From Phycisphaerae bacterium (GTDB taxonomy: Bacteria; Planctomycetota; Phycisphaerae; SM23-33): DNA of 63,590 nt. Where the stretch lies: NCBI GenBank assembly GCA_003551645.1, contig PUND01000065.1, positions 1 to 63,590 of the forward strand, in the 5' to 3' direction. Each line of letters begins with the position of its first letter. Positions within the stretch are counted from its first letter, which is position 1. Shown piece after piece: positions 13,097 to 51,658 of this stretch. Both the position numbers and the translations under genes were made by a program. Under the pieces are notes generated by a model. The model did no database searches. It was not told where the DNA came from and saw only the letters and a list, made by a program, of their open reading frames with translations.

Positions 13097-14497
13097 TCAC
13101 GGCTGCGCCTCGGCCGACACATCCAGGCAACGCATCCGCCCGAGGTCTCTTACCAGCAGCTTCCCGCCGGCCAGCGCGGGCGGGCCCCACGCCTCCGGGC
13201 CGGGCAGCACCCGGGCCTGCGCGATCTGCCGATACCCCTTCGGCGTCGCCTCCACCATCGTAAGCGTTCCGTCATCGTCAATAAGGTATATAACGCCGTC
13301 GGCGAGCAGGTATCCGCCCAGTCCGAAGCGATGCTCCCTGCCGCTGGTCCAGATGATATTGCCGTCAAGGTCCAGACAGACCAGCCGGCCGTCGGCTCGG
13401 ACACCGTAAATGTGGTCCTCATAAAGGACAGGCGTCTGCTGTTCGGCGCCGAATTCACTCGCCGACAGACGCCATTTCTCGACTGGTTCAATCCCACCGT
13501 CGTTCTGTCGGAGCTGGAGCATCATGCTGCCGGCGTTGTACCCGCCGGTAAGCAGAATCCGCCCGTCGGGAACGATAACCGGGCTGGGCACGGTTGCGAT
13601 GCTGATGCGCCAGGCGTCCGTGTGCCAGAGTATCTCGCCGTCGTCGGCACATACCCCGACGACGCCCCCGCTGCCGCAGTACACGTACATCCGCCTGTCG
13701 GCGAAGTCCATCGGCATCACCGAGCTGTGGGTCATGTCCCAGCCGAACTCGTTCGGTGTCTCCCATACCTTCTCGCCGCTTTCGGCGTCGATCGCCGTCA
13801 GCAGCACATCATCGCCGGCGGGGGCAAGTATAACTCGACCATCATCGATGAGCGGGCACTGTCCGGCGTACCAGGGGGGGACCCTGGTGCCGTATTCGGA
13901 GACCATGTCGATGCCCCAGAGGTACTCGCCGGTCTCGGCCTCCAGGGCCATGACGTGGCACTTCGGCCCCAGCGTTACCAGCACACCGTCGGCCAGGGCG
14001 GGCACGGTCCTGCTCATGCCGTGATTGCGGCGGATGTCCACCGGCACCGACCGGCGGTAGATTTCCCTGCCGTCGTCGAGGTTGATGCAGCGAAGGGCAT
14101 TGGCGCGGTTCTCCACGTCGTAGTCCAGCACGTAGGCCCTGCCGTCTTTGACCGCGGCCGCGGCGTAACCCTCCCCCAGCGAAACCTCCCAGAGTACAGG
14201 CGGGCCGTCGTCGGGCCAGTCTCTAGCCAGTTCGGCGGCCGATCGCGCTATGCCGTCGCGCGCCGGTCCGCGGAACTGCGGCCAGGCGTCCGCCGTGGGT
14301 TCCCCGGGCGGTACGTCGAAGGTCTCCAGCGTACCGGGCAGGGCCGGCTCGGCCGGCGCATCCTGACGGGGGGCTTCGTCTATACCCGGCTCGCGCCGTA
14401 CCAGCTCCGGGGCGCCGTCGCCGGCGGCGAGCAGCCAGAAAGACAGCACCGCTATTAGCACGGCTGCTGCGAAGATTGGGAGTATCCGGGCGAGCAC
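13097..14497 (-). CDS. Membrane-anchored PQQ/BamB-like beta-propeller protein
   Basis: N-terminal TM segment, AWPQFRGPARDG and blades ending in W..P/SSP. Confidence 0.88.
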   Translation of the reverse strand: MLARILPIFAAAVLIAVLSFWLLAAGDGAPELVRREPGIDEAPRQDAPAEPALPGTLETFDVPPGEPTADAWPQFRGPARDGIARSAAELARDWPDDGPPVLWEVSLGEGYAAAAVKDGRAYVLDYDVENRANALRCINLDDGREIYRRSVPVDIRRNHGMSRTVPALADGVLVTLGPKCHVMALEAETGEYLWGIDMVSEYGTRVPPWYAGQCPLIDDGRVILAPAGDDVLLTAIDAESGEKVWETPNEFGWDMTHSSVMPMDFADRRMYVYCGSGGVVGVCADDGEILWHTDAWRISIATVPSPVIVPDGRILLTGGYNAGSMMLQLRQNDGGIEPVEKWRLSASEFGAEQQTPVLYEDHIYGVRADGRLVCLDLDGNIIWTSGREHRFGLGGYLLADGVIYLIDDDGTLTMVEATPKGYRQIAQARVLPGPEAWGPPALAGGKLLVRDLGRMRCLDVSAEAQP

Positions 14498-14650
14498 TGA
14501 TGTTCCGGTGCGGTCTGTCGGCTTGAACCTCGACAGGCGGCAGTGTACATTAATCTACCCACCATTTTTGTCTTTATGCTCCTGAAAACCAAGAGATTTT
14601 GCGGGCCGACCGGCCCTGAAACAGGTTCAACCCCGATAAGGGGGCCGATT

Positions 14651-15889
14651 ATGCCAAAGATTGCGGCTTTGCTGTGCGCGTTTCTGTGTGTCGGTGTTCT
14701 GATGCACTTGTATCCCCCCGCGGCAAGCGCCGAGGATAGCGCCGTGTCCGACTGGCCGCAGTTCCTCGGCCCGAACCGCGACGGCACCACCCCGGAAAGC
14801 GGCTGGCGAACCGACTGGGACGACCAACCGCCCGAAAAGCTCTGGGAAAGAGACGTCGGCACCGGCTACGGCAGCGTGGCCGTCCGCGACGGCCGGGTGT
14901 ACACCATGGGCAACGCGGACCGAACACAGGACGTGGTCTGGTGTCTTGACGCCTCCTCCGGCGAGGTTATCTGGAGGCACAGCTATCGGCAGCGGGGCGC
15001 CGGCGCCGGCTACCCAGGCCCGAGGGCGACGCCGACACTCGACGGCGACCACGTTTACTCCTTCAGCATTGAGGGCAAACTGCTGTGTCTGGACGATTCC
15101 CGCGACGGCGAGGTCGTCTGGAGCAGGGACGTGGTGGACGATTTTTCCGGAACAGCCGGGCAGTGGGGCTTCGCCTCGTCGCCGCTGGTGCTGGGTGAGA
15201 AGCTCATCGTGGACGCCGGGACGGTCCTCGCACTGGACAAGAACACGGGCGAGCTTATATGGCGGACCGGCGACTACCGGGCCGGCTACAGCTCCCCTGT
15301 GGCGTTCGAACGAGACGGCGAGACGCTGCTGGCGATATTCAACGCCTCCGGCCTGGTGATCCTCAACGCCGAGGACGGCGAGAAGATCGCCGAGCACCGC
15401 TGGCGGACCGCCCATGACGTCAACGCGGCCCTGCCCCTGATTGACGGGGACCACATCTTCATCACCTCCGGCTACCGAAGCGGCGGGGCGCTGCTGAAGC
15501 TGACCGATGAGGGGCTTGAGGAAATCTGGCAAAACCGTGCCCTGGGCAGCCAGTTCTCCAGCGTGATACTCAGGGACGGCTACCTCTACGGCTTCGACGG
15601 CAACGTCGGTGGCGCGCGGATGAAGTGCGTGGAGCTGGAGACCGGCCGGGAGGTCTGGCAGCACCGCGAGTCCGGCGCGATGATACTCGCCGGCGACAAG
15701 TTCCTCATACAGGGCCACGCGGGCCGACTGGCCGTGGCCAGGCCGACGCCCGAGGAGTACGAAGAACTGTCGTCGTTTACTCTGCCGCGCGACCGATGGT
15801 GGAATATCGCCGTACTCGCCGAAGGCCGCATATACGCGCGTAGCCACGGCGGAAAACTGGTCTGCCTGGACGTCAGCGAAGAACAGTAA
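14651..15889 (+). CDS. Secreted PQQ/BamB-like beta-propeller protein
   Basis: Sec signal (ASA-ED), DWPQFLGPNRDG, ATPTLDG and FASSPLV. ATG at 14651. Confidence 0.88.
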   Translation: MPKIAALLCAFLCVGVLMHLYPPAASAEDSAVSDWPQFLGPNRDGTTPESGWRTDWDDQPPEKLWERDVGTGYGSVAVRDGRVYTMGNADRTQDVVWCLDASSGEVIWRHSYRQRGAGAGYPGPRATPTLDGDHVYSFSIEGKLLCLDDSRDGEVVWSRDVVDDFSGTAGQWGFASSPLVLGEKLIVDAGTVLALDKNTGELIWRTGDYRAGYSSPVAFERDGETLLAIFNASGLVILNAEDGEKIAEHRWRTAHDVNAALPLIDGDHIFITSGYRSGGALLKLTDEGLEEIWQNRALGSQFSSVILRDGYLYGFDGNVGGARMKCVELETGREVWQHRESGAMILAGDKFLIQGHAGRLAVARPTPEEYEELSSFTLPRDRWWNIAVLAEGRIYARSHGGKLVCLDVSEEQ

Positions 15890-15923
15890 AACACCCCACA
15901 ACCCCAAACGCGAGGAACACAAA

Positions 15924-17306
15924 ATGAGAACTAACACCGTCGCCCTGTGTCTGGCTGCCCTGGTCGCCTCCTGCGCCGCGGCCAGCCCGCCTGTTGGCTG
16001 GCGGGGCGACGGAACCGGGCGCTACCCGGACTCCGAAGCGCCGAAGGAATGGTCCGCTGAGCGGAACGTATTGTGGTTTGCGGAAACCTCTGAATGGTCC
16101 AACACGATGCCGACCATCGTGGGCGACCGGATTTTCATAACCGCCGAGCCGGCGACCCTGATATGCCTAGACGCATCGGACGGCTCGGTCCTCTGGCAGG
16201 CCGAGAACGATTACGAAAGCATTCTCCGCGAGGAGGAACTGGCCCGCGCCGAAAAGGCCCGGGAGCTTAACCGTGAGCTTTCCAGTCTGCGAGGCGAACA
16301 CCGCCGCACCCGCCGGGAGGCCGAACGCGCCGAGGATGAGCCGGAAAAGGCCGCCGAACTCGCACAGCAGGTCGAGAAACTCCAGGAGCAGGTGGATGAG
16401 TTGCAGCAGCGCCTGGCGTCCTACAGGGAATACCTCAAGCCCGACACCCACGGCACCAACGGCTATTCCTCGGCGACCGTCGTCAGCGACGGCCGATACG
16501 TTCACGCGCTTTTCGGCATCGGTGTGGCCGTCTCTTACGACATGGAAGGTAACCGCCGCTGGGCAAGGCGCGTCGATAAGCCCCGCAGCGGCTGGGGCCA
16601 CAGTGCATCTCCGGTTTTGGCGGACGGCAAGCTGATAGTGCATGTTACCGACGTGGTTGCGCTGAATACCGACGACGGTGAAGAGATATGGCGCACGCCC
16701 GCCAAGGCCAGCTTCGGCACACCCGTGGTGGCCTCGGCCGACGGCGGCGACGTGATCATCACACCCCGCGGCGACTTCATCAGGGCCTCGGACGGCGAGA
16801 AACTCGGCTCGGTCGCCGCGGGCCTTGAGTACAACTCACCCGTAATCCAGGACGGAGTGGTGTATTTCGTCGCCAACCAAAGAGGCAGGGCAACAGCCGT
16901 CAAGCTTCCGGAAAAGCCGGAGCCATTCGACGCGGAACCCCTCTGGCAGGTGGATATCACACGCAATCGGTACTACGGGTCGCCGGTTTACCGCGACGGC
17001 AGGATTTACGCCGTCACACAGAGCCACCAGTTGACCGTCCTGGACGCCTCCAACGGCGAGGCCATATACGAGATGAGGATCCCCGATATGCCCGGCCTGG
17101 TCTATTCAAGCATCACCATGACACGCAACGCACTGCTGATAAGCACCGAGCGGGGCGCGACCGTTCTGCTCGCGCCCGGTGATGAATACGAGGAACTCGG
17201 CCGGGGCCGCCTGGATACCTTCCGCAGCACTCCGGTGTTCGACTCCGGAAGGATGTACATACGCACACGGTCGGGGCTGTACTGCATCGCACCCGAGGAC
17301 AATTGA
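15924..17306 (+). CDS. Secreted PQQ/BamB-like beta-propeller with a coiled-coil insertion
   Basis: Signal peptide, GWRGDGTGRY, a ~70 aa Glu/Arg-rich helical insert, HSASPVL and STPVF. Confidence 0.82.
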   Translation: MRTNTVALCLAALVASCAAASPPVGWRGDGTGRYPDSEAPKEWSAERNVLWFAETSEWSNTMPTIVGDRIFITAEPATLICLDASDGSVLWQAENDYESILREEELARAEKARELNRELSSLRGEHRRTRREAERAEDEPEKAAELAQQVEKLQEQVDELQQRLASYREYLKPDTHGTNGYSSATVVSDGRYVHALFGIGVAVSYDMEGNRRWARRVDKPRSGWGHSASPVLADGKLIVHVTDVVALNTDDGEEIWRTPAKASFGTPVVASADGGDVIITPRGDFIRASDGEKLGSVAAGLEYNSPVIQDGVVYFVANQRGRATAVKLPEKPEPFDAEPLWQVDITRNRYYGSPVYRDGRIYAVTQSHQLTVLDASNGEAIYEMRIPDMPGLVYSSITMTRNALLISTERGATVLLAPGDEYEELGRGRLDTFRSTPVFDSGRMYIRTRSGLYCIAPEDN

Positions 17307-18163
17307 CCATGGAATCACCCGCGGATGTGTTGTTTTGCCGCTGCGCATACGCCGGCCTCACAGACCCCGCCGAATGTGAACGTCTGCTCGCTGGGCTGCG
17401 GGCGGCGGGGCTTTCCTGCAGCCCTATACCTGACCTGTGCTCGCTGGTCGAAAGACGCGACCCGATACTGAGCGAGACCGCCGGGCGGCGGCGGCCGGTG
17501 ATCGTCGCCTGTCGGCCGAGGGCGGTGCGGGCACTGTTCGCGTACGCCGGGGCGGAGCTTCCCGAAGATGCGGCCGTGACAGACCTTCGCAACACGCCCG
17601 TTGAGGAGGCGCTTGCGGAAATAGTGCCGCCGGAAACACTCCCGGCCGCCCGCGCCGCGGCCGAGGCGGCCGGCGTCGCCGAGCCAAGGCAAGACCCCGA
17701 AGACGGCTGGCTGCCGTGGTTTCCGGTCATCGACTACACACGCTGCACCCACTGCGGTAAGTGCCGTAACTTCTGTCTGTTCGACGTTTACACCACCACC
17801 GACGACGGCCGGGTCGCCGTCTCGGCGCCGCGAAACTGCAAGACCTTCTGCCCGGCCTGTGCCCGCACGTGCCCGGCCGGCGCGATCATCTTCCCCAAAC
17901 ACCCCGATCCGCCCATCGACGGCGGCGAGCCGGACAAACCCTCCAAGGCCGAAGATGCGCCTACACTGGTGCAACAGGATGTGTTCGAGGCATTGAAGGC
18001 CCGCAACCGCCGCCGGCAAGACCCTTGCGAATGCGACTGCGAGAAGGGCGCGGCTGATCCGTCGGAGCAGTTGAAACAGGCCGGGCTTTCCCCCGACAAG
18101 ATAGCCGAGATTTCCCGACGTATTCATGAACATGCCCGGGACAATGAGACCCCCGACAAATAA
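17303..18163 (+). CDS. Ferredoxin-family protein: HdrA-N-like Cys domain plus 2x[4Fe-4S]
   Basis: FCRC..LC..ACRPR N-terminal domain, [24 protein letters not shown] and C-terminal CECDC. Confidence 0.8.
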
Positions 18164-19709
18164 CCGCCTCACACCTGCGGTCGTCCTGGTGGCCGACAGG
18201 ACCCTCAGCGCCCGCTACAACGTGCTGTTCGAGGGCATCCTCGCGACTATGCAGACAACTCAGGTCCCGTCGGTGGCGATGCGGCGGCTTCTGTCTCCCT
18301 CGGCGCCGACCGACCGCGACGGCCGGGCCGTAGTCGCTCCGCTGGGGCTGCGAAGGGTGGAAGCCGCGCTGCTGGACGACGGCCTGGACAACGCCGACGT
18401 TGTCGTCACCACACCGGAACGGCTCGAAGACCTGCTCGGCCCGTGGACCATGGTCGTCGCGGTCAGCTCCAGCGACTTCCTCGGCCGGGGCATGAGCAAC
18501 ACCACAACGAGCAATTTCTGGTCCGGCGAGCTTTATACGCGCCGCTGGACACGTCGGATGATGCAACGGATCCTCGATGCGAAACGTCGTTTCGGCTTCT
18601 CGGTCATCGCCGGCGGGGCGGGCGCCTGGCAGTTGGCCCAGAGGCCGCAAGAGGCAGGGCGACTGGGCATTGATACCGTCTTTCAGGGTTACTTCGAATC
18701 CGGCGGCCCGGACACTGTCCGCGATCTCCTGCGGGGCCGCGAAGCCCCGTTCCACATACACCAGCTGCGGACCCGCGCGGCCTGGGCACGGCCGATTCGC
18801 GCGGCGTCCTCGATGGGCGTGGTGGAGCTTTCCCGCGGCTGCGGCAACGGCTGCCAATACTGCACCATGGGCCGGCATGCGATGGAGCACCTGCCGCCGG
18901 AGACCATACTCAGCGACCTTCGGACCAACTGCGAGGCCGGACTACGAAGCGCCGTCAGCAGCAGTGAGGACTTCTTCCGCTACGGCGCCGACCGCGGCCG
19001 GGTCAACTTCGACGCCCTTACAGGCCTGCTCGAACAGGTCCGCCGGATCCCGGTGCGGTTCATGCAGATAGACCACGCCAACATCAGCTCGGTTCTGGAG
19101 TTCTCCGACTCGCAACTGCGGGAAATCCGCCGACTCCTGACGTGGTCGCCCTCGACTCGCTACCTGTGGGTGAACCTCGGCGCCGAGAGCGCGAACGGCG
19201 AGCTGGTCGCGGCCAACGGACCGGGCAAGCTAGGCGGCATCCCGCCGGCCGACTGGCCCGAAGCCGTCATCGAGGCCGCCGACAAGCTCGACCGCACCGG
19301 CTTTTTCCCCGTGTTCAGTCTGGTCCTTGGGCTTCCCGGCGAGACACCCGCCGACGTCCGTGCTACGCTGGACATGGTGCGGCGGCTCGCCAACGGCCGG
19401 GCTGTCATATTCCCGGTGTTCCACGAGCCGATCATGCCCGGCCAGAAGCGATTCGGCATGGCCGAGATGACATCCGAGCACCTGCAACTGTACCGTACTT
19501 GTTACGAGCTGAATTTCCGATGGGTACCGCGGCTGTTCCGCGACAACCAGAGAGTGGGCGGCGTCGGCGGCGTTCGTCGGACGCTGTTCCAGTTGCTGGG
19601 CAGGGCGGAAGTTGTGTCCTGGAGGCGGAACTTCGCTCGCCTTGGCCGGAAACTGCCCGAAAGCCCCACAACCCGCCATCGGCCGGCCGAGATCGCCGCC
19701 GGCGGTTAG
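18144..19709 (+). CDS. Radical SAM enzyme with B12-binding-like N-domain, resembling the GDGT ring synthase (GrsA/B) family
   Basis: CxxxCxxC ([11 protein letters not shown]), [11 protein letters not shown] and LGLPGET. N-terminal VLVADRT..Y and [19 protein letters not shown] match my recollection of the Grs-family pattern. Confidence 0.8.
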
Positions 19710-19716
19710 AATCGCC

Positions 19717-21399
19717 ATGACCGAACCGCAACCCAGACACGCACCCGCCGACGCGGCCACCCGGCGCAAGCTGGAGGCGCTGGCGGCGGAGACCGCCACC
19801 CGCGAGGCGCTGGTCCCGCCGGTGTCGCTGGAGCGGCTCCGCACACTGGCCGCCGGGCTGCTCCGCGAAGCCGGCGCGCCCGACCGCTGGCGCGACTACG
19901 TCATGGTGATCCTCAGCAACGCCGCCTGGCGCGACGCCTTCGCCGACGTGCCCATGAACAAACGCCTGCTTATGCTGCCGCAGTGCCTGCGGCACGATCG
20001 CGACGCCTGCCCGGCGGAAATGGACGGCTTCGGCCTGCTGTGCGGCGACTGCGGCCGATGCCGGATAGGCGAGCTGCGGGCCGTAGCAGAGGCGCTGGGA
20101 TACGTCGTCCTGGTCGCCGAGGGCACAACCGTCGTAACCTCGCTGATAGCGGACGGGCAGGTCGAGGCGATACTCGGCGTAAGCTGCATGAGCGTGCTCG
20201 AGAAGGTCTTCCCATACATCCAGGCGGCAGCGATTCCGGGCATCGCCGTCCCGCTGCTGACGGACGGCTGCTCCGGCACCGAGGTGGACATCGCCGGGGT
20301 GCACGAGGCGATCAACCTCAGCGGCGACGGCGCCACCCGCCGGCTGGACATCGAGGCCGTCCGCCGGGAGGTGCTCGGCTGGTTCAGCGAACGGCGGCTG
20401 GAGGAGATGATGGGCGAGGCCGGCGGCTCGGCCGAGCGCATCGCGCGAGACTGGCTCCTCGCCGGCGGCAAGCGTTGGCGCCCCCTGCTGACGGCCTGCG
20501 CCTACCAGTCGCTGCGCGACGACGAACGAGACGACCTGCCGGTGGAACTCGAAAAAACCGCACTGTCCGTCGAATGCTTCCACAAGGCCTCGCTGATACA
20601 CGACGACATCGAGGACGCCGACGACCAACGTTACGGCCGCGAGACTCTGCACAAGACACACGGAGTCGCGGTGGCGCTGAACGCCGGGGATTTGCTCATC
20701 GGGGAGGGCTACCGGCTGCTCGCCGAGAGCGGCCTGGACGCCGCGAGAACCGCCCGCATGGTCCGCTCGGCGGCCGAGGCCCACCGCCGGCTGTGCGGCG
20801 GACAGGGAGATGAGCTTTCCTGGGCCAGCCGGCCCGGACCGCTGCCGGTGGAGAAGATGCTGGACATCTTCTCGCGAAAGACCTCACCGAGTTTCTACCT
20901 CGCACTGCACCTCGGCGCGATATGCGCCGGCGGGGACCGTGAAATCGACCCACACCTCCGCCTGTACAGCGACTCGGTCGGCATCGCCTACCAGATTCAC
21001 GACGACCTGCGGGACCTCCACTCGCCAGGCGGCGCCGGCGACCTGGACGCGAATCGGCTGTCGGTGGTCCTGGCGGCCGCGTGGGAGCACGCCGACGAAC
21101 AGGGCAGAACACAGCTGGAGGCGGCGCTTCGCAAACCCGCCTCCGACGCCGGCCGCGGCCGGGAGATGTCGCGGCTGCTGAACCGGACACGCGCCGTCCA
21201 TACCGCCCGGCAACTGCTGCAAATGCACAAGCAACAGGCGATCCGCTCGCTGGACGGCCTGCGATGCGCCCCGCTTAAGGCGCTTTTGAGACGACTACTG
21301 GGCAAGATATTCGGCGACGCCGAGGAACTGGGCTGGTGTGCTGACCATTCGGCTGCAAATGCTCCACTGGGCGAGCTTGGCTCGCAACAGACTGCCTGA
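19717..21399 (+). CDS. DUF116-like Cys-rich domain fused to a trans-isoprenyl diphosphate (polyprenyl) synthase
   Basis: N-terminal LPQCLR..CP..CGDCGRC..VAEG..GVSC; C-terminal GGKRWRP, FARM HKASLIHDDIED, RKT and SARM YQIHDDLRD. Confidence 0.9.
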   Translation: MTEPQPRHAPADAATRRKLEALAAETATREALVPPVSLERLRTLAAGLLREAGAPDRWRDYVMVILSNAAWRDAFADVPMNKRLLMLPQCLRHDRDACPAEMDGFGLLCGDCGRCRIGELRAVAEALGYVVLVAEGTTVVTSLIADGQVEAILGVSCMSVLEKVFPYIQAAAIPGIAVPLLTDGCSGTEVDIAGVHEAINLSGDGATRRLDIEAVRREVLGWFSERRLEEMMGEAGGSAERIARDWLLAGGKRWRPLLTACAYQSLRDDERDDLPVELEKTALSVECFHKASLIHDDIEDADDQRYGRETLHKTHGVAVALNAGDLLIGEGYRLLAESGLDAARTARMVRSAAEAHRRLCGGQGDELSWASRPGPLPVEKMLDIFSRKTSPSFYLALHLGAICAGGDREIDPHLRLYSDSVGIAYQIHDDLRDLHSPGGAGDLDANRLSVVLAAAWEHADEQGRTQLEAALRKPASDAGRGREMSRLLNRTRAVHTARQLLQMHKQQAIRSLDGLRCAPLKALLRRLLGKIFGDAEELGWCADHSAANAPLGELGSQQTA

Positions 21400-22219
21400 A
21401 GGGCCTGAGCCGGTCCGGGCGTTCCTGGAATCCAGGCGACTCGCCGGCGGCGGGTTCTCCGGCCGGGACGACAAGCCGGACCTGTACTACACGTCCTTCG
21501 CAGCAGATCTGTTCCGGGCGCTGGGCGGCGACGACCCGCCGCCCGGGCTTACCGACTATCTCGATCGCGCCCTGACCGGCACAGCCGATATGGACCTGGT
21601 CCACCTGTGCTGTCTCATCAGGTCCCGGCGGTCGCTGGGGCTTGCCTGCGACGGACGGTTCGCCGACCGGCTGGCCGAGTTTCGCAGCGCGGACGGCGGG
21701 TTCGCGACCTCCCCGAACGCCAGGACCGGAAGCAGCTACGGGGCGTTCCTGGCTGTGGGGGCGTGGGAGGAACTGGACTCTCCCCCCGAAGACATCAACG
21801 CCGTCGCCGAGAGCGTCCTTGCTCTTCGCTGCCGGGGCGGAAGCTTCGCCAACGACTCCCACCTGCGGATCGGCTCGGTACCCGGCACGGCCGCGGCGGT
21901 GGTGGCTTTGAGACACATGGACCGGCCCGCGGACCCTGAAAGCGCCGATTGGCTGAGCAAACGGCAACTCGCCTCCGGCGGGTTTGAACCGGTCGCCGGA
22001 CTGGGCCGCGCCGATTTGCTTTCGACCGCAACGGCGATGGCCGCCCTCGCCGGCGAAGGGCGGCTGACCGGCGAACAGGCCGAAGCGGCCGTGCCGTTCG
22101 TACACCGGCTGTATCGCGGCGGCGGGTTCGCGGCCTCCGAAGACGACCGCGGCGCCGACTGCGAATACACCTGGTATGCGCTGCTGGCACTGGGTCTTCT
22201 GGAGGAGGACCAGGCGTGA
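21338..22219 (+). CDS. Prenyltransferase/squalene oxidase repeat protein (GGTase-beta-like alpha-alpha barrel)
   Basis: Repeated GGF motifs (AGGGF, ADGGFA, GGSFA, ASGGFE), DLYYT, DLLSTATA and DCEYTWYAL. Confidence 0.85.
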   Translation: MLTIRLQMLHWASLARNRLPEGPEPVRAFLESRRLAGGGFSGRDDKPDLYYTSFAADLFRALGGDDPPPGLTDYLDRALTGTADMDLVHLCCLIRSRRSLGLACDGRFADRLAEFRSADGGFATSPNARTGSSYGAFLAVGAWEELDSPPEDINAVAESVLALRCRGGSFANDSHLRIGSVPGTAAAVVALRHMDRPADPESADWLSKRQLASGGFEPVAGLGRADLLSTATAMAALAGEGRLTGEQAEAAVPFVHRLYRGGGFAASEDDRGADCEYTWYALLALGLLEEDQA

Positions 22220-24030
22220 CCGTACCGCACCTGAAAGAGACCCTCGATACGCTCCGCGACCGGCTGCTGGCCGAGCGGTCCGCCCGCGGATGCTGGACCG
22301 GCCGGCTCTCCACCAGCGCCCTTGCGACGGCCACGGCGGTTACCGCTCTGACCATCGCCGAGCCGGAGACCGCCGGCGAGCAAATAGAAGGCGGACTCGA
22401 CTGGCTCCGGACCAACGCCAACAGCGACGGCGGTTGGGGCGACAGCCCGGAAAGCCCGAGTAACCTCTCTACCACCGTGCTGGGCTGGTCCGCATTCGCC
22501 GCGGCCGGCAGGGCGGACGACGAGTGCGCCGCCGCTGCCGAGTCGTGGATAGACCGCGCCGTCGGCGGGCTGGATACGGACAAGCTTCTCGGCGCGATTG
22601 TCGGCTCATACGGCGGCGACCGGACCTTCTCGACGCCGATCCTGGCAATGACCGCGCTTGCCGGACGGCTCGGCCCCGGCCGGGACACCTGGCGGCACGT
22701 GCCACCTCTGCCATACGAACTCGGCGCGCTTTCGCACCGCTGGCTGCGCCGCCTGCGGCTGCCGGTGGTCAGCTATGCGTTGCCGGCGCTTATCGCGGTC
22801 GGCCGGCTGAGGCGATGCCGGCTGCGGCCGCGAAACCCGATAACACGGCTGGTCCGCCGGCTCGCCGATGGCCCGGCCCTGCGGAAGCTCGAACACATCC
22901 AGCCCGAAAGCGGCGGCTACCTGGAGGCCCCGCCGCTGACGGCGTTCGTGGTGATGTCGCTGGTCTCCTGCGGAGCGGCGGAGCACCCCGCGGTGCCGCG
23001 GGGGCTGCGGTTTCTGCACGATACGGTCCGGCCCGACGGCGGCTGGCCCATCGACACCGACCTGGCGACCTGGCTTACGTCCCTGTCGGTCCGCGCGCTT
23101 GCCGCCGACGGGTGTCCTCCGCCGCGATTCACGGCCGAAGACCGCCGTACGACACTTCAATGGCTGCTGGACTGCCAACTGCGACGCGTGCATCGCTACA
23201 CCGAGGCCCCGCCCGGCGGCTGGGCTTGGACCGACCGCTCAGGCGGGGTCCCCGACGCCGACGACACCTCCGGCGCCATGCTCGCCCTGCGACTGCTGGA
23301 CGGCGACGACCCGAGCCGCGCCCGGGCGGCCGAGTTCGCCGCCGACTGGCTCGGAGGGCTGCAGAACCGCGACGGGGGAATCCCGACGTTCTGCCGCGGG
23401 TGGGGCCGGCTTCCGTTCGACCGCAGCGCGGCCGACCTGACCGCCCACGCCGTCGCCGCATGGTCCGCCTGGCCGCCTGCCGGCGACCGGGCCGGCGAGA
23501 GGATGTCCCGCATCAAGCGGGCGGTCGCATACCTGGCGCGGGCACAACGAGCCGACGGCGCCTGGCTGCCGCTGTGGTTCGGCAACCAGCACACGCCTGA
23601 TATGACCAACCCGGTTTACGGGACCGCTCGCGTGCTGATAGGGCTTTGCGGCGCGGACGCCGCGAACAACACGCCCGACGCGCTGAGCCGTGGGGCCGGA
23701 TGGCTGCTGTCGGTCCAGCGGTCCGACGGCGGATTCGGCGGCGACTCGGACGGGCCTTGTTCCATCGAGGAGACCGCGGTAGCCGTATCGGCCCTGTCGG
23801 CCGTCGGCCTGCGTATGCCGGATGAGCCGCGGCTGCCCGATGCCGTGCGGCGCGGAGCGATGTGGCTTATCGAACACACAGACGGCGGAAACGTAACGCC
23901 CGCCACGCCCATAGGGCTTTACTTCGCCAGACTGTGGTATTCCGAGAAGCTGTACCCGCTTATTTTCTCCACTGAGGCCCTGGCACGGGCCGGGGCATTG
24001 CTGCATCGTCGCTACGAAGGCGATACGTGA
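22216..24030 (+). CDS. Class II terpene cyclase (squalene-hopene cyclase-like)
   Basis: Catalytic DxDD motif (PDADDTS) and at least six QW-type repeats (NANSDGGWG, VRPDGGW, LQNRDGG, AQRADGAW, VQRSDGGFG). Confidence 0.88.
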   Translation: MTVPHLKETLDTLRDRLLAERSARGCWTGRLSTSALATATAVTALTIAEPETAGEQIEGGLDWLRTNANSDGGWGDSPESPSNLSTTVLGWSAFAAAGRADDECAAAAESWIDRAVGGLDTDKLLGAIVGSYGGDRTFSTPILAMTALAGRLGPGRDTWRHVPPLPYELGALSHRWLRRLRLPVVSYALPALIAVGRLRRCRLRPRNPITRLVRRLADGPALRKLEHIQPESGGYLEAPPLTAFVVMSLVSCGAAEHPAVPRGLRFLHDTVRPDGGWPIDTDLATWLTSLSVRALAADGCPPPRFTAEDRRTTLQWLLDCQLRRVHRYTEAPPGGWAWTDRSGGVPDADDTSGAMLALRLLDGDDPSRARAAEFAADWLGGLQNRDGGIPTFCRGWGRLPFDRSAADLTAHAVAAWSAWPPAGDRAGERMSRIKRAVAYLARAQRADGAWLPLWFGNQHTPDMTNPVYGTARVLIGLCGADAANNTPDALSRGAGWLLSVQRSDGGFGGDSDGPCSIEETAVAVSALSAVGLRMPDEPRLPDAVRRGAMWLIEHTDGGNVTPATPIGLYFARLWYSEKLYPLIFSTEALARAGALLHRRYEGDT

Positions 24031-24377
24031 AACTGATATACTCAAACGTGAAGGGCTTTCAGCCGGCAGCGAAACGGCCGGCGGCTTTGAGACGCCTTAA
24101 TTCGCGACCCATTGACAGGGCCGAGCGGAAAAGCCGTTCAAGCAGCCACTGTCATACGCGGCTGTGCGTCGCGTGTGCGAACGTTTTGCGTTGCGATGGG
24201 CCGAGTACCGAGGCCGTCCGGAAATGCGTGGCAAGTGAGTTAATGACTTACGACAGAAGTACGGAACTGTTTGGGGCTGATGCTTCAACAGCGGCCGACC
24301 GGAGGTCCGAAGGACCGGCAGTCATCAGCCGGAGCCGTGAGGCCCCGGAGCACTAACGATTGCGGAAACAAGCCGAC

Positions 24378-25574
24378 ATGAAGCAGGCAATCATCCTGGT
24401 CCTGATAATGGGCGCCGCGTTCGCGGCGCTGCTCCTGTTGCGGATGCGCGACGACAGCGACGCTGATGCCGATCCGCCTCGGCCGCGGGAGGAACCCGCG
24501 CAAATCAACGCCCGTGGAGACTGGCCGATCTTCCGGGGCGATGCGGCGCTGCAGGCCCACAGCCCGACCGAGCTGCCCCGGCGGCTGCGGCTTATCTGGC
24601 GACAGGACACCGCAGCGCCGATCAACAGCTCGCCGGTAATCGCCGACGGTCTGGTCTTCGTCGGCAACGACGACGGAAAGCTGCTGGCCCTTCGGCTCAG
24701 CGACGGCCGGGAGCAATGGTCGTTCGCCGCGGCCGACCCGATAGTCGCGCCGCCGATGGTCGCGGACGGCTCGGTCTATGTCGGCACGCTTGCCGGGGAC
24801 CTGCTGCGGCTGGACGCCGCCGACGGCGAGAAGCTCTGGTCATACGCCACCGGCGGTGAGATTCACGGCTCGGCCAACTCCGCCGGCAGCGGCGACCAAC
24901 TGCGGATACTGGTGGGCAGCTACGACGGCAAGCTGCACTGCGTGCGCGCCTCCGACGGGCACGGGCTTTGGACGTACCAGACCGACAACTACGTTCACGG
25001 CGCCCCGGCCGTCGCCGACGGGCTGGCCGTCTTCGGCGGCTGTGACTTCAACATCCACACCGTCGGCATCGAAGACGGACAACCCGCCGGGAGCGTCCAT
25101 CTGGGGCAGGGTTCATACGTCGCCGCCTCCGTCGCCGTCGCCGACGGCAGGGCCTACGCGGGCACGCACGACAACAGCTTCGTGGCCGTTGAACTTCCAG
25201 AAGGCCCGATCCGATGGGAACAGACCGCCGGCGGCGCCTTTTTCAGCCCGCCGGCGATAGCCGACGGCATGCTGGTTATCGGCTGCCGCGACCGGAACGT
25301 TTACTGCTTCGACGCCCGGACCGGAGAGCTTGTCTGGAGCTTCCTGACAGGCGGCGATGTTGACGGCGGGGCGGTTGTCGCCGGCCGGCGCGTGGTGGTC
25401 GGCTCGGCCGGCGGCAAGCTGTACCTGCTGGACCTCGCCGACGGCCGCGAGATATGGTCCCACACGCTGGGCGGGCCGATAAAGACCACGCCGGCGGTGG
25501 TCGAGGGCGCAGTCGTGGTCGGCTGCGAGGACGGCTTCGTGTACGCCTTCGCCCCCGAGGAGCCGGAGCAATGA
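24378..25574 (+). CDS. Membrane-anchored PQQ/BamB-like beta-propeller protein
   Basis: N-terminal TM segment, DWPIFRGD and eight regular blades (SSPVIADGLVFVG..GKLLAL..W). Confidence 0.9.
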   Translation: MKQAIILVLIMGAAFAALLLLRMRDDSDADADPPRPREEPAQINARGDWPIFRGDAALQAHSPTELPRRLRLIWRQDTAAPINSSPVIADGLVFVGNDDGKLLALRLSDGREQWSFAAADPIVAPPMVADGSVYVGTLAGDLLRLDAADGEKLWSYATGGEIHGSANSAGSGDQLRILVGSYDGKLHCVRASDGHGLWTYQTDNYVHGAPAVADGLAVFGGCDFNIHTVGIEDGQPAGSVHLGQGSYVAASVAVADGRAYAGTHDNSFVAVELPEGPIRWEQTAGGAFFSPPAIADGMLVIGCRDRNVYCFDARTGELVWSFLTGGDVDGGAVVAGRRVVVGSAGGKLYLLDLADGREIWSHTLGGPIKTTPAVVEGAVVVGCEDGFVYAFAPEEPEQ

Positions 25575-26278
25575 ACAACGATGCGCAAATCGCACAGATG
25601 GAGCATGTGGCGCGGTGGTTCCAGCAGCCGGACCGGACAGAGCGGCTGGAGGTGCTGCGGGATGTGTCGCTGCAAGTCGCGGCGGGCGAGTCGCTGGCTG
25701 TCGTGGGCCCCAGCGGGTCGGGCAAAAGCACGCTGCTGAACCTTCTGGCCGGGCTGGACAGGCCCAGTTCCGGGCGGGTGACTGTGGACGGCCGGGAGGT
25801 GTCCGGCCTCGACGACGATGCCCGCAGCCGGCTGAGATGCGAGCGGATCGGCATAGTCTTCCAGCTACACCATCTCCTGCCACAGTGCAGCGTGATGGAG
25901 AACGTCCTCATCCCCACGCTGGCGCCGGGGGCGCCGGAAGCGGCGTCGGCGCCGCGGCGCGCGAGCGACCTTCTGGAGCGCGTCGGCCTGGCCGACCGGC
26001 TGGACCACCGCCCGGGGCAGCTATCCGGCGGTGAGCGCCAGCGCGTGGCGGTGGTGCGGGCGCTGATAAACCGTCCGGCGCTGCTGCTTGCGGATGAGCC
26101 GACCGGATCGCTGGATCGTGCGGCGTCGGAGTCGCTGGCGGACCTGCTGGCGGAGCTGAACCGCGAGCAGGGCGTGGCGATGGTGACGGTCACCCACTCC
26201 ATGCGGCTGGCCGAGCGCATGGGTCGAGTGCTGCAACTGGACGACGGGACGCTTCGGACCGACGGGGAGCGGGCGTGA
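25571..26278 (+). CDS. ABC transporter ATP-binding protein (LolD/MacB-type)
   Basis: GPSGSGKST, LSGGERQRVA, LLADEPTGSLD and VTH. Confidence 0.95.
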   Translation: MNNDAQIAQMEHVARWFQQPDRTERLEVLRDVSLQVAAGESLAVVGPSGSGKSTLLNLLAGLDRPSSGRVTVDGREVSGLDDDARSRLRCERIGIVFQLHHLLPQCSVMENVLIPTLAPGAPEAASAPRRASDLLERVGLADRLDHRPGQLSGGERQRVAVVRALINRPALLLADEPTGSLDRAASESLADLLAELNREQGVAMVTVTHSMRLAERMGRVLQLDDGTLRTDGERA

Positions 26279-29200
26279 ATTATTCCCGGATATGGCTTCG
26301 TTCACTGCGGTTCTACCGGCGGACGCACCTCGGCGTGCTGGCGGCGGTGGCTGTGGCCACGGCCGTGCTGGTCGGCGCGCTTGTAACCGGCGACACCGTC
26401 CGCCACAGCATGCGCCGCATGGCCGAACAACGGCTGGGCGAGGTCGAGTTCGCGGTCGTATCTCCGCATCGGCTGTTCGCCGCGGACCTGGCGGGTCGGC
26501 TGGACCCCGGCTGCTCGGCCGTGCTGGAGCTTGCCGCGGCCGCACAGAGACCCGACGGCGCGGCCCGCGCCGCCGGCGTACGGGTGCTGGGAGTCGATGA
26601 GCGGTTCCGGCGTTTGTCCGCGTCGGCCGATGAGCGGATGCGGCCGGAAGGCAACGAGGCCGTCGTCAACGCCCGCCTGGCCGAGCGGCTGGAAATCGCG
26701 CCCGGCGATGAGCTTGTGCTGCGGCTCGAGACTCCGGGTGTGCTGCCGCTTGATGCGCCGCTGGCGGGGCCGGTGGACGGGACACACCTGTCGGTCCGCA
26801 TCCGGGCGGTGGTCGAGGCCGACAATCTTGGCGATTTCGCACTGACGGCCGACCAGCAGACGCCGCTGAACGTGTTCGTCAGTCGAGAGCTGCTTGCCGA
26901 GCGGATCGGCCGCCCGGGCATGGCGAACCTGCTGCTTATGCCGCGGGGCCTGGCCGACGACGCGGCCGATGCGGATGCACTGGTTCGCCAGAACTGGCGG
27001 CCGGCGGACTCCGGGCTGGAACTGCACCGGCCCGGCGAAGATACGGTCGAGCTGCGCAGCGAGAGGGTATTTCTCGATGCGGCCGTGGTGCGGGCGGCGG
27101 CGGAGCTTGGACCCGCCGCCGGCGTGCTGACATACTTTGTGAACACCTTCGCCACCGACGATGCGGAAGCTCCATACGCCTTCGCGGCCGGAGTCGGACC
27201 GCTAGGCGGCAGGCCGGACGACTGCCCGCTGCTGGATGCGCTGGGGGAGTTGGACGACGATGAGGCGGTCGTCAACGAATGGCTCGCCGAACGCGACCTG
27301 CAGGCGACGCCGGGCGATACGCTGCGAATGAGCTATTACGTTGAGGGCGTGGGCGGGCGGCTAGTCGAGCGGACAAGGGAGTTTGGCATATCGGCCGTGG
27401 TTCCGCTTGCCGGCGCGACCGGCGATTCGACGCTGATGCCGGAGTTTCCCGGCCTGGCCGGCGTCGAGGACTGCCGCAACTGGGACCCCGGCGTGCCGAT
27501 GGACCTGTCGCGCATACGCGACCTCGACCAGAGGTACTGGGACAACCACGGCGGCACGCCCAAGGTATTCGTGAACCTGCCGGCGGCGCGGGAGATGTGG
27601 GGCAACCGCTTCGGCGAGCTGACGGCCATCCGCTGGCCGGCGGCCGACGGAAGCCCGGACGGCATTGCCGAACGCCTCGGGTATCTGATAGACCCGGCCG
27701 AGCTTGGGCTGTACTTCCAGCCGGTGCGGATGCGGGCGATTGACGCGGTCGAGCAGGGCCAGGACTTCGGGCAGTTGTTCCTGGGCTTCAGCATGTTCCT
27801 TATCGGCTCGGCGGTGCTGCTGACGGGGCTGTTGTTCGTATTCGGCGTTCAGCAGCGGAGGGAGGAGGTCGGCACGCTGCTTGCCGTCGGCTGGACCAAG
27901 GACCAGGTCCGGCGGCTGCTGCTGACAGAGGGCGCCGTTGTGGCGGTCGTCGGCGGACTTATCGGCGCCCCGGCCGGGCTTGGCTATACGGCGGCGGTCG
28001 CCTGGGCGATGGAGACGTTCTGGCCGCGTGCGGTCGCCGGCGGAAGGCTTGCGCTGCATGCCGGCTGGGTGTCGCTGGTGCTGGGAACGGTCTCGGCGGT
28101 GACGATAGCGGTACTTGCCATGTGGCTTACGCTGCTGCGGCAGATGCGCCGCGATGTGCGTGAGTTGCTGGCCGAAGCGGCCGAGCCGCCTCCACCGCCT
28201 CGGCTGCGGCGGCTGGGATATCTGCCGGCGCCTCTGTGTGCGGCGGCGGCTGGTGTGCTGCTGGCGGCCGGGCCTGGGCTTGGCCCGCAGGCGGCGGCGT
28301 GGTTCTTTGCGGCGGGCGCGTTGCTGCTGGCGGCCTTCGTGACCGGCCTGTATGCGGCTCTGGGACGGCTGTCGGGGAGGTCGCGCCGGTCGCTTGGCTG
28401 GTGGTCGCTGGCGGCCCGCAATGTCGCGCGTCGTCGCGGGCGGAGCGTGGCGGTGGCGGCGCTGCTGGGCTGTGCGAGTTTCATGGTAGTCGCCGTGGGG
28501 GCGAACCGACTCGGCGTCGGCGAGGATGTGTCTGAGCGGTCCGGTCCTGCCGGCGGGTTCGAGCTTATGGCGCGTTCGTCACTGCCGATTGCGGAAGACC
28601 TGCACACCGCCGATGGCAGGAGGGAATTCGGGCTGGACGCCGAGACGGCGGAGTCGGCCGAGGCAGTGGCCTTTCGCGTACACGACGGCGATGAGGCGAG
28701 TTGCCTGAACATAGGCAGGGCGCAGCGGCCGCGACTGCTGGGCGTCCGTCCGGAGGTGCTGGACGGCCGGGGGGCATTTCGCTTTGTGGAGCTTGCCGAG
28801 CAGGCCGATGTGGAAAGCCCGTGGGGCGTGCTGGATATGGAGCTTGCCGAGGGCGAGATCCCGGTCATCGGCGACCAGCCGACGCTGCGATGGTCCCTCA
28901 ACAAGGGACTCGGCGACACCGTCGAGTACACTGATGAGCATGGCGGGCCTTTCCGGCTGAGGATTGTCGGCGTCATCGCATCTTCGGTGCTCCAGGGCAA
29001 TCTGGTGATATCGGAGGAGCATTTCCGGCAGCGGTTCGGGTCCGTCGGCGGCTACCGGATGGCGCTTTTCGACGCCCCGGCCGGCGATACCGACCGGCTA
29101 GCTGAGATGCTCACACGCGCCGGCGAGCCGGTGGGCCTGGAGGTGACGACTACGGCTGAGCACCTCGCGGAGTTCCGCCGGGTGGAGAACACTTACCTGT

Positions 29201-29571
29201 CGATTTTTCAGATACTCGGCGGGCTTGGGCTGCTGCTGGGCACGGTGGCGGTGGGCGTGGTGACGGCCCGGAACGTGCTGGAGCGGCGGACTGAGCTTGC
29301 CCTTCTGCGGGCGGTGGGGCATCCGCCTGCGGGAGTGCGGCGACTGGTGATAGCCGAGCACTGGATGCTACTGACCGCGGGCGTGGGCGTCGGGGCGGCG
29401 GCCGGGCTGCTGGCTGTGATGCCGGCGATGGCCCAGCGGGACGGGCAATTCCCCGCTGTTTCACTGGCCCTTACGCTTCTGGCGATCCTCGCCGGTGGGC
29501 TGGTATGGACATACCTGGCCGCGTCGGCGTCGATGCGCGGCGACCTGCTGCCGGCGCTGAGGAACGAATAA
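26275..29571 (+). CDS. Large FtsX/MacB-family ABC permease (duplicated, 1098 aa)
   Basis: Two repeats of TM, large periplasmic domain and FtsX TM block (QRREEVGTLLAVG; ERRTELALLRAVG). Confidence 0.92.
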   Translation: MNYSRIWLRSLRFYRRTHLGVLAAVAVATAVLVGALVTGDTVRHSMRRMAEQRLGEVEFAVVSPHRLFAADLAGRLDPGCSAVLELAAAAQRPDGAARAAGVRVLGVDERFRRLSASADERMRPEGNEAVVNARLAERLEIAPGDELVLRLETPGVLPLDAPLAGPVDGTHLSVRIRAVVEADNLGDFALTADQQTPLNVFVSRELLAERIGRPGMANLLLMPRGLADDAADADALVRQNWRPADSGLELHRPGEDTVELRSERVFLDAAVVRAAAELGPAAGVLTYFVNTFATDDAEAPYAFAAGVGPLGGRPDDCPLLDALGELDDDEAVVNEWLAERDLQATPGDTLRMSYYVEGVGGRLVERTREFGISAVVPLAGATGDSTLMPEFPGLAGVEDCRNWDPGVPMDLSRIRDLDQRYWDNHGGTPKVFVNLPAAREMWGNRFGELTAIRWPAADGSPDGIAERLGYLIDPAELGLYFQPVRMRAIDAVEQGQDFGQLFLGFSMFLIGSAVLLTGLLFVFGVQQRREEVGTLLAVGWTKDQVRRLLLTEGAVVAVVGGLIGAPAGLGYTAAVAWAMETFWPRAVAGGRLALHAGWVSLVLGTVSAVTIAVLAMWLTLLRQMRRDVRELLAEAAEPPPPPRLRRLGYLPAPLCAAAAGVLLAAGPGLGPQAAAWFFAAGALLLAAFVTGLYAALGRLSGRSRRSLGWWSLAARNVARRRGRSVAVAALLGCASFMVVAVGANRLGVGEDVSERSGPAGGFELMARSSLPIAEDLHTADGRREFGLDAETAESAEAVAFRVHDGDEASCLNIGRAQRPRLLGVRPEVLDGRGAFRFVELAEQADVESPWGVLDMELAEGEIPVIGDQPTLRWSLNKGLGDTVEYTDEHGGPFRLRIVGVIASSVLQGNLVISEEHFRQRFGSVGGYRMALFDAPAGDTDRLAEMLTRAGEPVGLEVTTTAEHLAEFRRVENTYLSIFQILGGLGLLLGTVAVGVVTARNVLERRTELALLRAVGHPPAGVRRLVIAEHWMLLTAGVGVGAAAGLLAVMPAMAQRDGQFPAVSLALTLLAILAGGLVWTYLAASASMRGDLLPALRNE

Positions 29572-41201: not shown

Positions 41202-41521
41202 CAGCCGTCTCCCTAAACAAAAAAGCGCCGAAGATTTGATCCAAGGACTGCCAACTGCGACCACGAGTGCGAAACCCTCCGTGGTTTGCCGGCCGCACCC
41301 TTAGTTCGACCGAAGTTTAAGACCGGATAGGGCGCAAGTCAAAGGCAAAATCGCCGCCGTCGCGAAAACTCCCGGCCCGGCCGGCAGGGGCAGTGGAGGG
41401 CTGTTACAAACCCGTTGCGCAGGTTCCGCTGGCCGGGTGCGATACTGTCTGTGGAAGCGGCGAGAACCCCGTCCGCGGAGGCGGGGAAGGGCCGCGGGAA
41501 ACCCAATCCGAGGAGCGCACC

Positions 41522-51443: not shown

Positions 51444-51658
51444 CACCGCGGGCGGCCCGCCGCGTCGGGCCGCCGGCGCATGCCTTCGGCGGGCAAGGGT
51501 CTTGCAAACACGTCCGCCAAATCCGCATAATACCGCAATCGCGGGATTTGTACGCCGCCGGGTCCGATACGTGCCGCCGCAGTGTGTGGCGGGGTCGGTT
51601 CCGGCCGTGGCCGCGACTGCAACGCCCCAGCGCCGGGGCCTTTCCAACCGGAGTGATT

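Follow-up and report, generated by a model that had tools for sequence, protein, structure and literature searches.

What does a class II terpene cyclase act on when its gene stands beside a polyprenyl synthase gene of its own? The products of class II cyclases, hopanes and steranes among them, underpin the record of molecular fossils, and the largest group of these enzymes without a known substrate is a clade referred to as squalene-hopene cyclase (SHC)-like or 'unknown'. The question is raised here by contig PUND01000065.1 of a Phycisphaerae bacterium (assembly GCA_003551645.1), of which positions 1-63,590, a GC-rich stretch (about 65%), were analysed as a whole and are called the window below. 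An initial annotation of this DNA had placed a synthase, a barrel protein and a cyclase on the + strand at 19717-24030, where all of their features are indeed found. The conserved unit is larger than these three genes, however: the ferredoxin gene (17303-18163) and the radical S-adenosylmethionine (SAM) gene (18144-19709), which had been overlooked, lie upstream and belong to the same cassette of five genes in total. This cassette is real and widespread, occurring in at least six phyla, anaerobes included. Whether it cyclises a dedicated regular (head-to-tail) polyprenyl chain rather than squalene, independently of O2 and with radical SAM tailoring, is in our judgement an evenly balanced question, to which the answer proposed here is yes. 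The genes and motifs concerned are as follows.

17303-18163, + strand: ferredoxin-like protein of 286 amino acids (aa), with Fer4 family matches.
18144-19709, + strand: radical SAM enzyme of 'type 1', 521 aa, matching PF04055; the open reading frame (ORF) opens at 18126 and the deposited protein at 18144.
19717-21399, + strand: DUF116-polyprenyl synthase fusion, 560 aa from its ATG, matching PF01976 and PF00348.
19870-20313, + strand: DUF116 domain proper, matching PF01976 over residues 87-234 of an ORF that begins at 19612; its motifs are PQC, ACP, CxxCxxC, SC and GC.
20602-20616, + strand: first aspartate-rich motif (FARM) of the synthase, DDIED, with H-K-A-S-L-I-H before it.
20629-20637, + strand: R-Y-G after the FARM.
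21001-21015, + strand: second aspartate-rich motif (SARM) of the synthase, DDLRD.
21338-22219, + strand: stand-alone (alpha/alpha)6 barrel, 293 aa, with a weak PF00432 match.
22216-24030, + strand: class II (protonation-type) terpene cyclase, 604 aa, matching PF13249 and PF13243.
23254-23265, + strand: catalytic DADD (DxDD) motif of the cyclase.

That these genes form a unit is seen from their distribution. Relatives of the cyclase of about 600 aa number in the thousands; the closest, from a Phycisphaerae metagenome-assembled genome (MAG), is 70% identical, and the others are 50-57% identical. Sampling at one genome per species returned 80 loci, carried by Verrucomicrobiota, Planctomycetota, Acidobacteriota, Desulfatiglans, Hydrogenedentota, Sumerlaeota and Abditibacteriaceae. 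The planctomycete carriers belong to Phycisphaerae, Pirellulales, Planctomycetaceae, Gimesia, Brocadiia and Gemmataceae, and those of the Acidobacteriota to Bryobacterales, Vicinamibacterales and Thermoanaerobaculia. Co-occurrence was scored by tblastn and by all-against-all ORF clustering, counting as informative the loci with sufficient flank (n=66, drawn from Planctomycetota, Acidobacteriota, Verrucomicrobiota, Hydrogenedentota, Desulfatiglans and Abditibacteriaceae). In 53 of the 66, the synthase fusion and/or the barrel is encoded within 10 kb of the cyclase, with 9/9 loci in Acidobacteriota, 27/29 in Planctomycetota, 11/21 in Verrucomicrobiota and 2/2 in Hydrogenedentota. The identical order of ferredoxin, radical SAM enzyme, DUF116-polyprenyl synthase, barrel and cyclase is found in a Phycisphaerae MAG (locus L001) and in a Bryobacteraceae MAG (L003), and such agreement between distant phyla indicates that the arrangement is more than chance. 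A Brocadiia locus (L082) and one from Schlesneria (L054) carry these genes too, but in another arrangement, which argues for a linkage that is functional and not merely inherited.

The cyclase is the member whose chemistry is most readily read from its sequence. Its Pfam matches are PF13249 (E 8.7e-19) and PF13243 (E 6.1e-41), and its best solved relative is the SHC of A. acidocaldarius (PDB 1gsz; phmmer E 8e-26). The DADD motif and QW repeats attributed to it by the initial annotation are present, the latter as three QW-type repeats whose Q residues are 383, 444 and 501. Upon alignment with SHC, D347-A-D349-D350 corresponds to D374-V-D376-D377, D407 to D447, H411 to H451, W454 to W489, Y468 to Y495, and G-G-W-A-W (334-338) to the G-G-F-A-F that includes F365. 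The DxDD motif and the equivalents of SHC D447, H451, W489, Y495 and F365 are all invariant among 83 orthologues, so that the DxDD, the Asp-His pair and the Tyr by which an SHC is recognised are all present. Since both the acid machinery and the aromatic residues of the cavity are kept, the protein is very probably an active polycyclase with strong-acid, alkene-protonating machinery.

It is not, for all that, a hopene cyclase when judged by the curated NCBI models. Pfam and NCBIfam scans were run on the window proteins, with genes picked by third-position GC (n=45 for Pfam). The cyclase scored 131.5 bits against a cut-off of 431.1 for TIGR01507, the SHC equivalog, and 130.9 bits against 322.7 for TIGR01787, the squalene/oxidosqualene cyclase model; a true hopene cyclase is ruled out by these cut-offs. 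Among the 45 window genes, the Pfam scan gave no match to SQS_PSY (squalene/phytoene synthase), HpnC/D/E, HpnH or similar families, which bears out the earlier statement that squalene synthase and hpn genes are missing from the window. The description of the locus as a terpenoid unit and not a canonical hopanoid locus is thus upheld by the cyclase falling below the SHC cut-offs, by the linkage of the synthase across phyla and by the lack of squalene genes in the window. By taxon range, length and gene context, the cyclase fits a clade already in the literature. Santana-Molina et al. (2020) named it 'SHC-like', found that its planctomycete members keep the catalytic residues and suggested from its gene context that the precursor is not squalene (PMC7306690). 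McShea et al. (2025) described an 'unknown' clade from the Planctomycetes-Verrucomicrobia-Chlamydiae (PVC) and Fibrobacteres-Chlorobi-Bacteroidetes (FCB) groups, Spirochaetota and Acidobacteriota, whose function is undemonstrated (PMC12324236). The clade is marked by its taxon range, a length of 550-700 aa and the catalytic residues; the cyclase studied here has orthologues of 46-55% identity in Planctomycetota, Verrucomicrobiota, Acidobacteriota and other groups, a length of 604 aa and an invariant motif. The non-squalene substrate put forward by the initial annotation is therefore reasonable but not new, having been proposed by Santana-Molina et al. (2020) (PMC7306690).

The alternative to squalene proposed here is a chain made by the neighbouring synthase. 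The fusion protein matches DUF116 (PF01976, E 1e-33) and polyprenyl_synt (PF00348, E 2.3e-42). The motifs of a trans-polyprenyl synthase are all there, GKRxRP, FARM, KT and FQ with SARM each being invariant among the family sequences that cover them, and E-C-F-H-K-A-S-L-I-H-D-D-I-E-D shows almost no variation from phylum to phylum. The intact FARM and SARM reported earlier, with Ala at position -5 and Ser at -4 before the FARM, are found as described (DDIED at 20602-20616, DDLRD at 21001-21015), and the two small residues hold for the family, with Ala in 48/49 and Ser in 49/49 of the sequences covering the FARM. H-x-A-S-L-(I/V)-H-D-D is a signature of medium- and long-chain polyprenyl synthases, and position -5 is aromatic in archaeal geranylgeranyl diphosphate (GGPP) synthases. 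On these motifs a product longer than C20 is plausible. The chain-length rule from which the initial annotation had drawn this product is nevertheless weaker than claimed: Ala and Ser are in place, but the best PDB relatives of the synthase are archaeal GGPP synthases (5jfq and 1wy0, E ~1e-28), and all chain-specific NCBIfam models stay far under their cut-offs (the best at 124.6 bits against 450). In addition, the R-R-G expected after the FARM is replaced by R-Y-G in 48/49 members covering the motif. The second Arg of R-R-G contacts isopentenyl diphosphate (IPP) in farnesyl diphosphate (FPP) synthase.

The DUF116 domain fused to this synthase has seven invariant Cys, including a CxxCxxC motif. 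Its model (predicted local distance difference test, pLDDT, 87.7) found no PDB match at E<1e-3, with weak similarity to flavodoxin, B12-binding-domain or REC-like folds. An electron-transfer role has been predicted for DUF116 by Makarova et al. (2015), who also noted the synthase fusion in Pirellula staleyi (Psta_0175) (PMC5898192); the weak flavodoxin-like similarity of the model agrees with that prediction.

One may ask at this point whether the substrate could be squalene after all. The protein would then be a divergent triterpene cyclase working on squalene, or on another C30 chain, made by HpnCDE or Sqs encoded elsewhere, while the synthase would feed general FPP and GGPP metabolism. The proton-donor machinery and aromatic cavity of SHC are kept in the cyclase, the nearest solved relatives of the synthase make short chains, many Verrucomicrobiota cyclases stand alone, and Planctomycetes are reported generally to encode HpnCDE, so that squalene may be available in the cell (PMC7306690). 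We nonetheless consider this explanation unlikely, given that the cyclase scores a third of the SHC family cut-offs and belongs to a distinct clade, that it is tightly linked to a dedicated and unusual synthase in at least four phyla, that squalene genes are missing from the window, and that the authors who described the clade regard its substrate as unknown (PMC12324236).

The barrel encoded between synthase and cyclase had been called a prenyltransferase barrel, a name that stands for its fold and fails for its zinc site. Its PF00432 match is weak (31.7 bits, cut-off 26.5), and an AlphaFold2 model built with 45 orthologues (pLDDT 96.5, pTM 0.93) has the (alpha/alpha)6 barrel fold of a prenyltransferase beta subunit. 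In a Foldseek search of the PDB, the best matches were the beta subunits of RabGGTase and GGTase-III (E 2e-7, TM 0.6-0.7, 16-19% identity), followed by single-domain myxobacterial cyclases and then by drimenyl diphosphate synthase. Residues D48, Y50, Y51, F54, F137, D274, E276, Y277 and Y280 are invariant. Of residues that could serve as zinc ligand, no Cys is invariant or nearly so among 45-50 orthologues, nor is any His invariant; the sole near-invariant His (H89) lies far from the D274/E276 motif, and what we take to be the position of the ligand Cys in the D-x-C-Y-S-W-W of RabGGTase beta is an invariant Glu. A zinc-dependent protein prenyltransferase was excluded for this protein, as no Cys or His is conserved. 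From the model and the conserved residues, we infer that it would either bind prenyl diphosphate as a partner protein or act as a transferase that depends on Mg or on no metal at all.

A profile search covering 1.8 billion representatives gave at least 1151 clusters at 50% identity for the barrel family (E<=1e-30). The best 150 relatives are mostly about 290-300 aa long (range 240-389), and none of these 150 is long enough for a fusion to one of the partners. As the initial annotation had noticed, the two genes overlap: the first 62 nt of the barrel gene (21338-21399) are also the last of the synthase gene. An overlap of 59-62 nt recurs in 24/46 loci, and L001 and L003 show it; it is always in the +1 frame and is shared by Acidobacteriota and Planctomycetota, and the N-terminus of the barrel is conserved as (V/M)-S-L-R-L-E-M-L-Q; some lineages have an overlap of 4 nt or none. 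A frameshift fusion of synthase and barrel was also considered, and rejected because the overlap is always +1 and several lineages have 4 nt or none. The overlap is most simply explained by ordinary translational coupling.

Upstream of the synthase, the ferredoxin-like protein joins an N-terminal 4-Cys domain of about 105 aa (C-x-C ... DLC ... AC) to a 2x[4Fe-4S] PorD-like domain, with Fer4 matches at residues 139-195. The 4-Cys part is homologous to a separate gene of about 111 aa found elsewhere (tblastn, 41% identity, E 1e-17). The ferredoxin-like gene is present at 49/85 loci. In locus L020 (5046-7364), the small 4-Cys domain, the 2x[4Fe-4S] ferredoxin and a type-2 radical SAM enzyme make up a single ORF of 772 aa. 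This natural fusion points to the ferredoxin as a dedicated reductant of the radical SAM enzyme, and on such sequence evidence it is most likely the electron donor of that enzyme.

The radical SAM enzyme itself comes in two kinds. The type-1 protein encoded in the window matches PF04055 (E 4.2e-9), carries a CxxxCxxC core (C233/C237/C240) and has an N-terminal Rossmann-like, B12-binding-like region; it does not match PF02310, and it scores 64.5 bits against the cut-off of 251 for TIGR04013. Among PDB entries its top match is 9ccb (E 5e-4), the B12 radical SAM enzyme MgmA, and its 1085 relatives bear source names such as 'B12-binding domain-containing radical SAM' or 'YgiQ/UPF0313'; none of the hits is named as a GDGT ring synthase (GrsA/GrsB). 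No match to the HpnH, HpnJ or HpnP models is listed for either type. The role of the type-1 enzyme is presumed to be tailoring. A single radical SAM family was rejected, as the two types share only the CxxxCxxC region (BLASTP E 1.3). Both occupy one slot, the interval between ferredoxin and synthase (18144-19709 in the window, 6237-7430 in L003), and they never co-occur.

Two types of locus can be told apart on this basis. Type 1 comprises 11 loci, the window included, from Phycisphaerae, Pirellulales, Desulfatiglans and Brocadiia; its radical SAM enzyme is of about 520 aa and B12-binding-like, and its 4-Cys domain is fused to the ferredoxin. Type 2 comprises 29 loci from Acidobacteriota, Verrucomicrobiota, some Planctomycetota and Hydrogenedentota, with a SPASM/NirJ/AhbD-like enzyme of about 397 aa and the 4-Cys domain in a separate small gene. 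Genes for GcvH-like, COG0523, IscS and LplA-like proteins accompany type 2 (26/29, 24/29, 22/29 and 8/29, respectively) and are each found in 0/11 type-1 loci; tblastn likewise found no homologue of GcvH, LplA, IscS or CobW in the window. The type-2 GcvH-like protein keeps the lipoyl-lysine motif, the cysteine desulfurase is DndA/IscS-like and directly follows the cyclase in several loci, and the LplA-like (lipoate-ligase-like) gene joins the cassette in Acidobacteriota. Examples of loci with such extra genes are L003 (1580-7430), L026, L029, L036, L052 and L066.

These additional genes, together with the barrel, bear on a different route, in which the barrel is an active prenyltransferase that would attach the chain to a non-isoprenoid acceptor before cyclisation, as in the meroterpenoid route of MstE and Lon15. 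We find this doubtful. Conceivable acceptors are aromatic or quinone head groups, small thiols and carrier-protein arms. The GcvH-like protein, lipoate-ligase-like protein, cysteine desulfurase and COG0523 GTPase of type 2 could provide a thiol-bearing acceptor; however, the two locus types share no gene for making an acceptor, and the window has no GcvH, LplA, IscS or CobW homologue. Likewise, the best fold matches of the barrel are protein prenyltransferase beta subunits and its family, judged by the best 150 relatives, occurs as stand-alone proteins only, with invariant acidic and aromatic residues, but conserved Cys/His zinc ligands are lacking and an alpha-subunit-like gene is not seen in the cassette. 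Lon15, an enzyme of the sister clade, does act on a meroterpenoid (PMC12324236).

Altogether, the preferred explanation remains the cyclisation of a dedicated regular polyprenyl chain, which can be laid out as a series of steps. The synthase would add IPP units to an allylic diphosphate, giving a chain that probably exceeds C20, as its invariant Ala/Ser before the FARM suggests, with the 7-Cys DUF116 domain possibly supplying or accepting electrons at the synthase. The zinc-less barrel, judging from its fold and its conserved aromatic and acidic residues, would bind the polyprenyl diphosphate and either hand it on or couple it to an acceptor. By homology with SHC, the cyclase would fold the chain inside its aromatic-lined cavity, and its DxDD acid, activated by the Asp-His pair, would protonate a terminal C=C to form several rings. 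The radical SAM enzyme, reduced by the ferredoxin, a pairing that the natural fusion supports, would tailor or couple the chain or ring system. Independence from O2 is proposed because the DxDD acid protonates an alkene, because three Fe-S proteins take part and because carriers include the anaerobic lineages Sedimentisphaerales, Desulfatiglans and Brocadiia.

Several points weigh against this scheme. Type III GGPP synthases also have Ala-Ser at -5/-4, and the closest solved relatives of the synthase make C20. The presence of R-Y-G in place of R-R-G means that the second substrate may not be IPP. Two unrelated radical SAM families in the same slot imply that the reaction may differ between loci. 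Finally, among the Verrucomicrobiota roughly one cyclase in two lacks a partner inside 10 kb, and the reported HpnCDE genes of Planctomycetes may make squalene accessible. A more specific version, in which the cassette is the long-sought bacterial route, here anaerobic, to polycyclic regular polyprenoids of the tricyclohexaprenol type, starting from a dedicated C25-C40 chain, is decidedly improbable in our estimation; lipids of that type have been proposed to give rise to the tricyclic terpane 'orphan biomarkers'. It is with similarly slender expectation that the Fe-S and radical SAM chemistry could, under that version, be seen as a novel type of tailoring or coupling.

The cassette stands within a longer run of tightly spaced or overlapping + strand genes (14.5-29.6 kb), bordered by the following features identified with Pfam.

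14543-15889 and 15924-17306, + strand: two PQQ_2/BamB-like beta-propellers at the head of the operon.
24360-29571, + strand: downstream propeller, ABC ATPase and FtsX-type permease of 1098 aa.

Five PQQ_2/BamB-like propeller genes surround the cassette in all (8020-9777, 13097-14497, 14543-17306 and 24360-25574). In 9/11 type-1 loci, other genera included, the ferredoxin gene is immediately preceded by a propeller gene, and in the window the two overlap by 4 nt; the propellers at 14543-17306 are possibly associated with the cassette. Propeller genes are found nearby in 9/11 type-1 loci and 9/29 type-2 loci. These flanking genes, and the weak resemblance of the type-2 radical SAM enzyme to SPASM peptide and cofactor maturases, would suit a function outside lipid metabolism, in which the Fe-S proteins, radical SAM enzyme, barrel and 'cyclase' take part in maturing some protein or cofactor, such as one needed by the pyrroloquinoline quinone (PQQ)-like propellers nearby, with the toroids serving as binding modules. 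Such a function is very improbable: the members conserved best are a polyprenyl synthase that is catalytically complete and a cyclase whose DxDD is invariant, and a precursor-peptide gene is not evident.

A possible exporter is encoded downstream, where an ABC ATPase and the 1098-aa FtsX-type permease (25454-29571) are MacB/LolCDE-like. This pair could export the product, though it is only loosely associated with the cassette; the set of propeller, ABC ATPase and FtsX recurs after the cassette in loci L001, L040 and L078. A gap of 330 nt (24031-24359) follows the cyclase gene and contains a 109-aa ORF (24027-24356) with no Pfam match and a weak coding signal, which is probably non-coding. A promoter and terminator scan of 14.3-29.9 kb gave counts at the level of shuffled sequence and was uninformative. 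Farther along, a dnaA gene lies at 39870-41264, so the contig may span the region of the chromosomal replication origin, and a 1089-aa protein with two BcrAD_BadFG ATPase domains and DUF2229, an activase-type architecture, is encoded at 51548-54817.

Identifying the substrate of the 'SHC-like/unknown' clade has been described as necessary to settle how substrate use evolved among cyclases (McShea et al.; PMC12324236). What is added here is the placement of the cyclase in a fixed set with an Fe-S-fused synthase, a zinc-less barrel, a ferredoxin and a radical SAM enzyme. The five genes form a unit that can be expressed; the scheme predicts a non-squalene, oxygen-independent product and points to cultured carriers, among them Pirellula staleyi (the Psta_0175 locus) and Gemmata obscuriglobus. 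Should a regular polyprenoid with rings prove to be the product, orphan biomarkers of sediments and oils could find their origin in it, the tricyclic terpanes for instance (PMC9247107), and abundant soil and sediment bacteria would gain a new lipid class.

Among the known systems closest to the cassette is the 'SHC-like/unknown' clade, with which its cyclase shares the PVC/Acidobacteriota range, the length of about 600 aa, the catalytic residues and a neighbouring prenyl synthase (PMC7306690, PMC12324236), and no feature seen speaks against membership; the ferredoxin, radical SAM, DUF116 and barrel partners and the two locus types were found undescribed in the literature searched. With the SHC of A. 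acidocaldarius, the cyclase has in common the two-domain fold, the DxDD, the Asp-His pair, the aromatic cavity residues and the QW repeats, but it matches SHC weakly, adjoins no hpn or squalene genes and is linked to a polyprenyl synthase of its own. The barrel has the (alpha/alpha)6 fold and repeat motifs of the beta subunits of RabGGTase, GGTase-III and FTase, from which it differs by its lack of conserved Zn ligands and of an alpha subunit and by its identity of only 16-19%. Hopanoid hpn clusters likewise combine a class II cyclase with radical SAM tailoring (HpnH, HpnJ, HpnP/HpnR), some of it of the B12-binding type, whereas the radical SAM enzymes of the cassette have no listed HpnH, HpnJ or HpnP match and no squalene synthesis genes beside them. 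Lon15 (longestin) and AtoE (atolypene), of the reported sister clade, are epoxy-polyprenyl cyclases acting on regular chains from a pathway-specific synthase; they need an epoxidised substrate, hence O2, while the cyclase of the cassette keeps a full DxDD beside oxygen-sensitive Fe-S enzymes. Set against the sporulenol pathway of Bacillus (HepS/HepT, YtpB, SqhC), the cassette lacks a YtpB-like gene, its synthase is fused to DUF116, a barrel and a radical SAM enzyme are added, and its cyclase belongs to a different clade; even so, in that pathway too a dedicated synthase, making C35, feeds a cyclase of the SHC family, and the outcome is a non-hopanoid polycycle.

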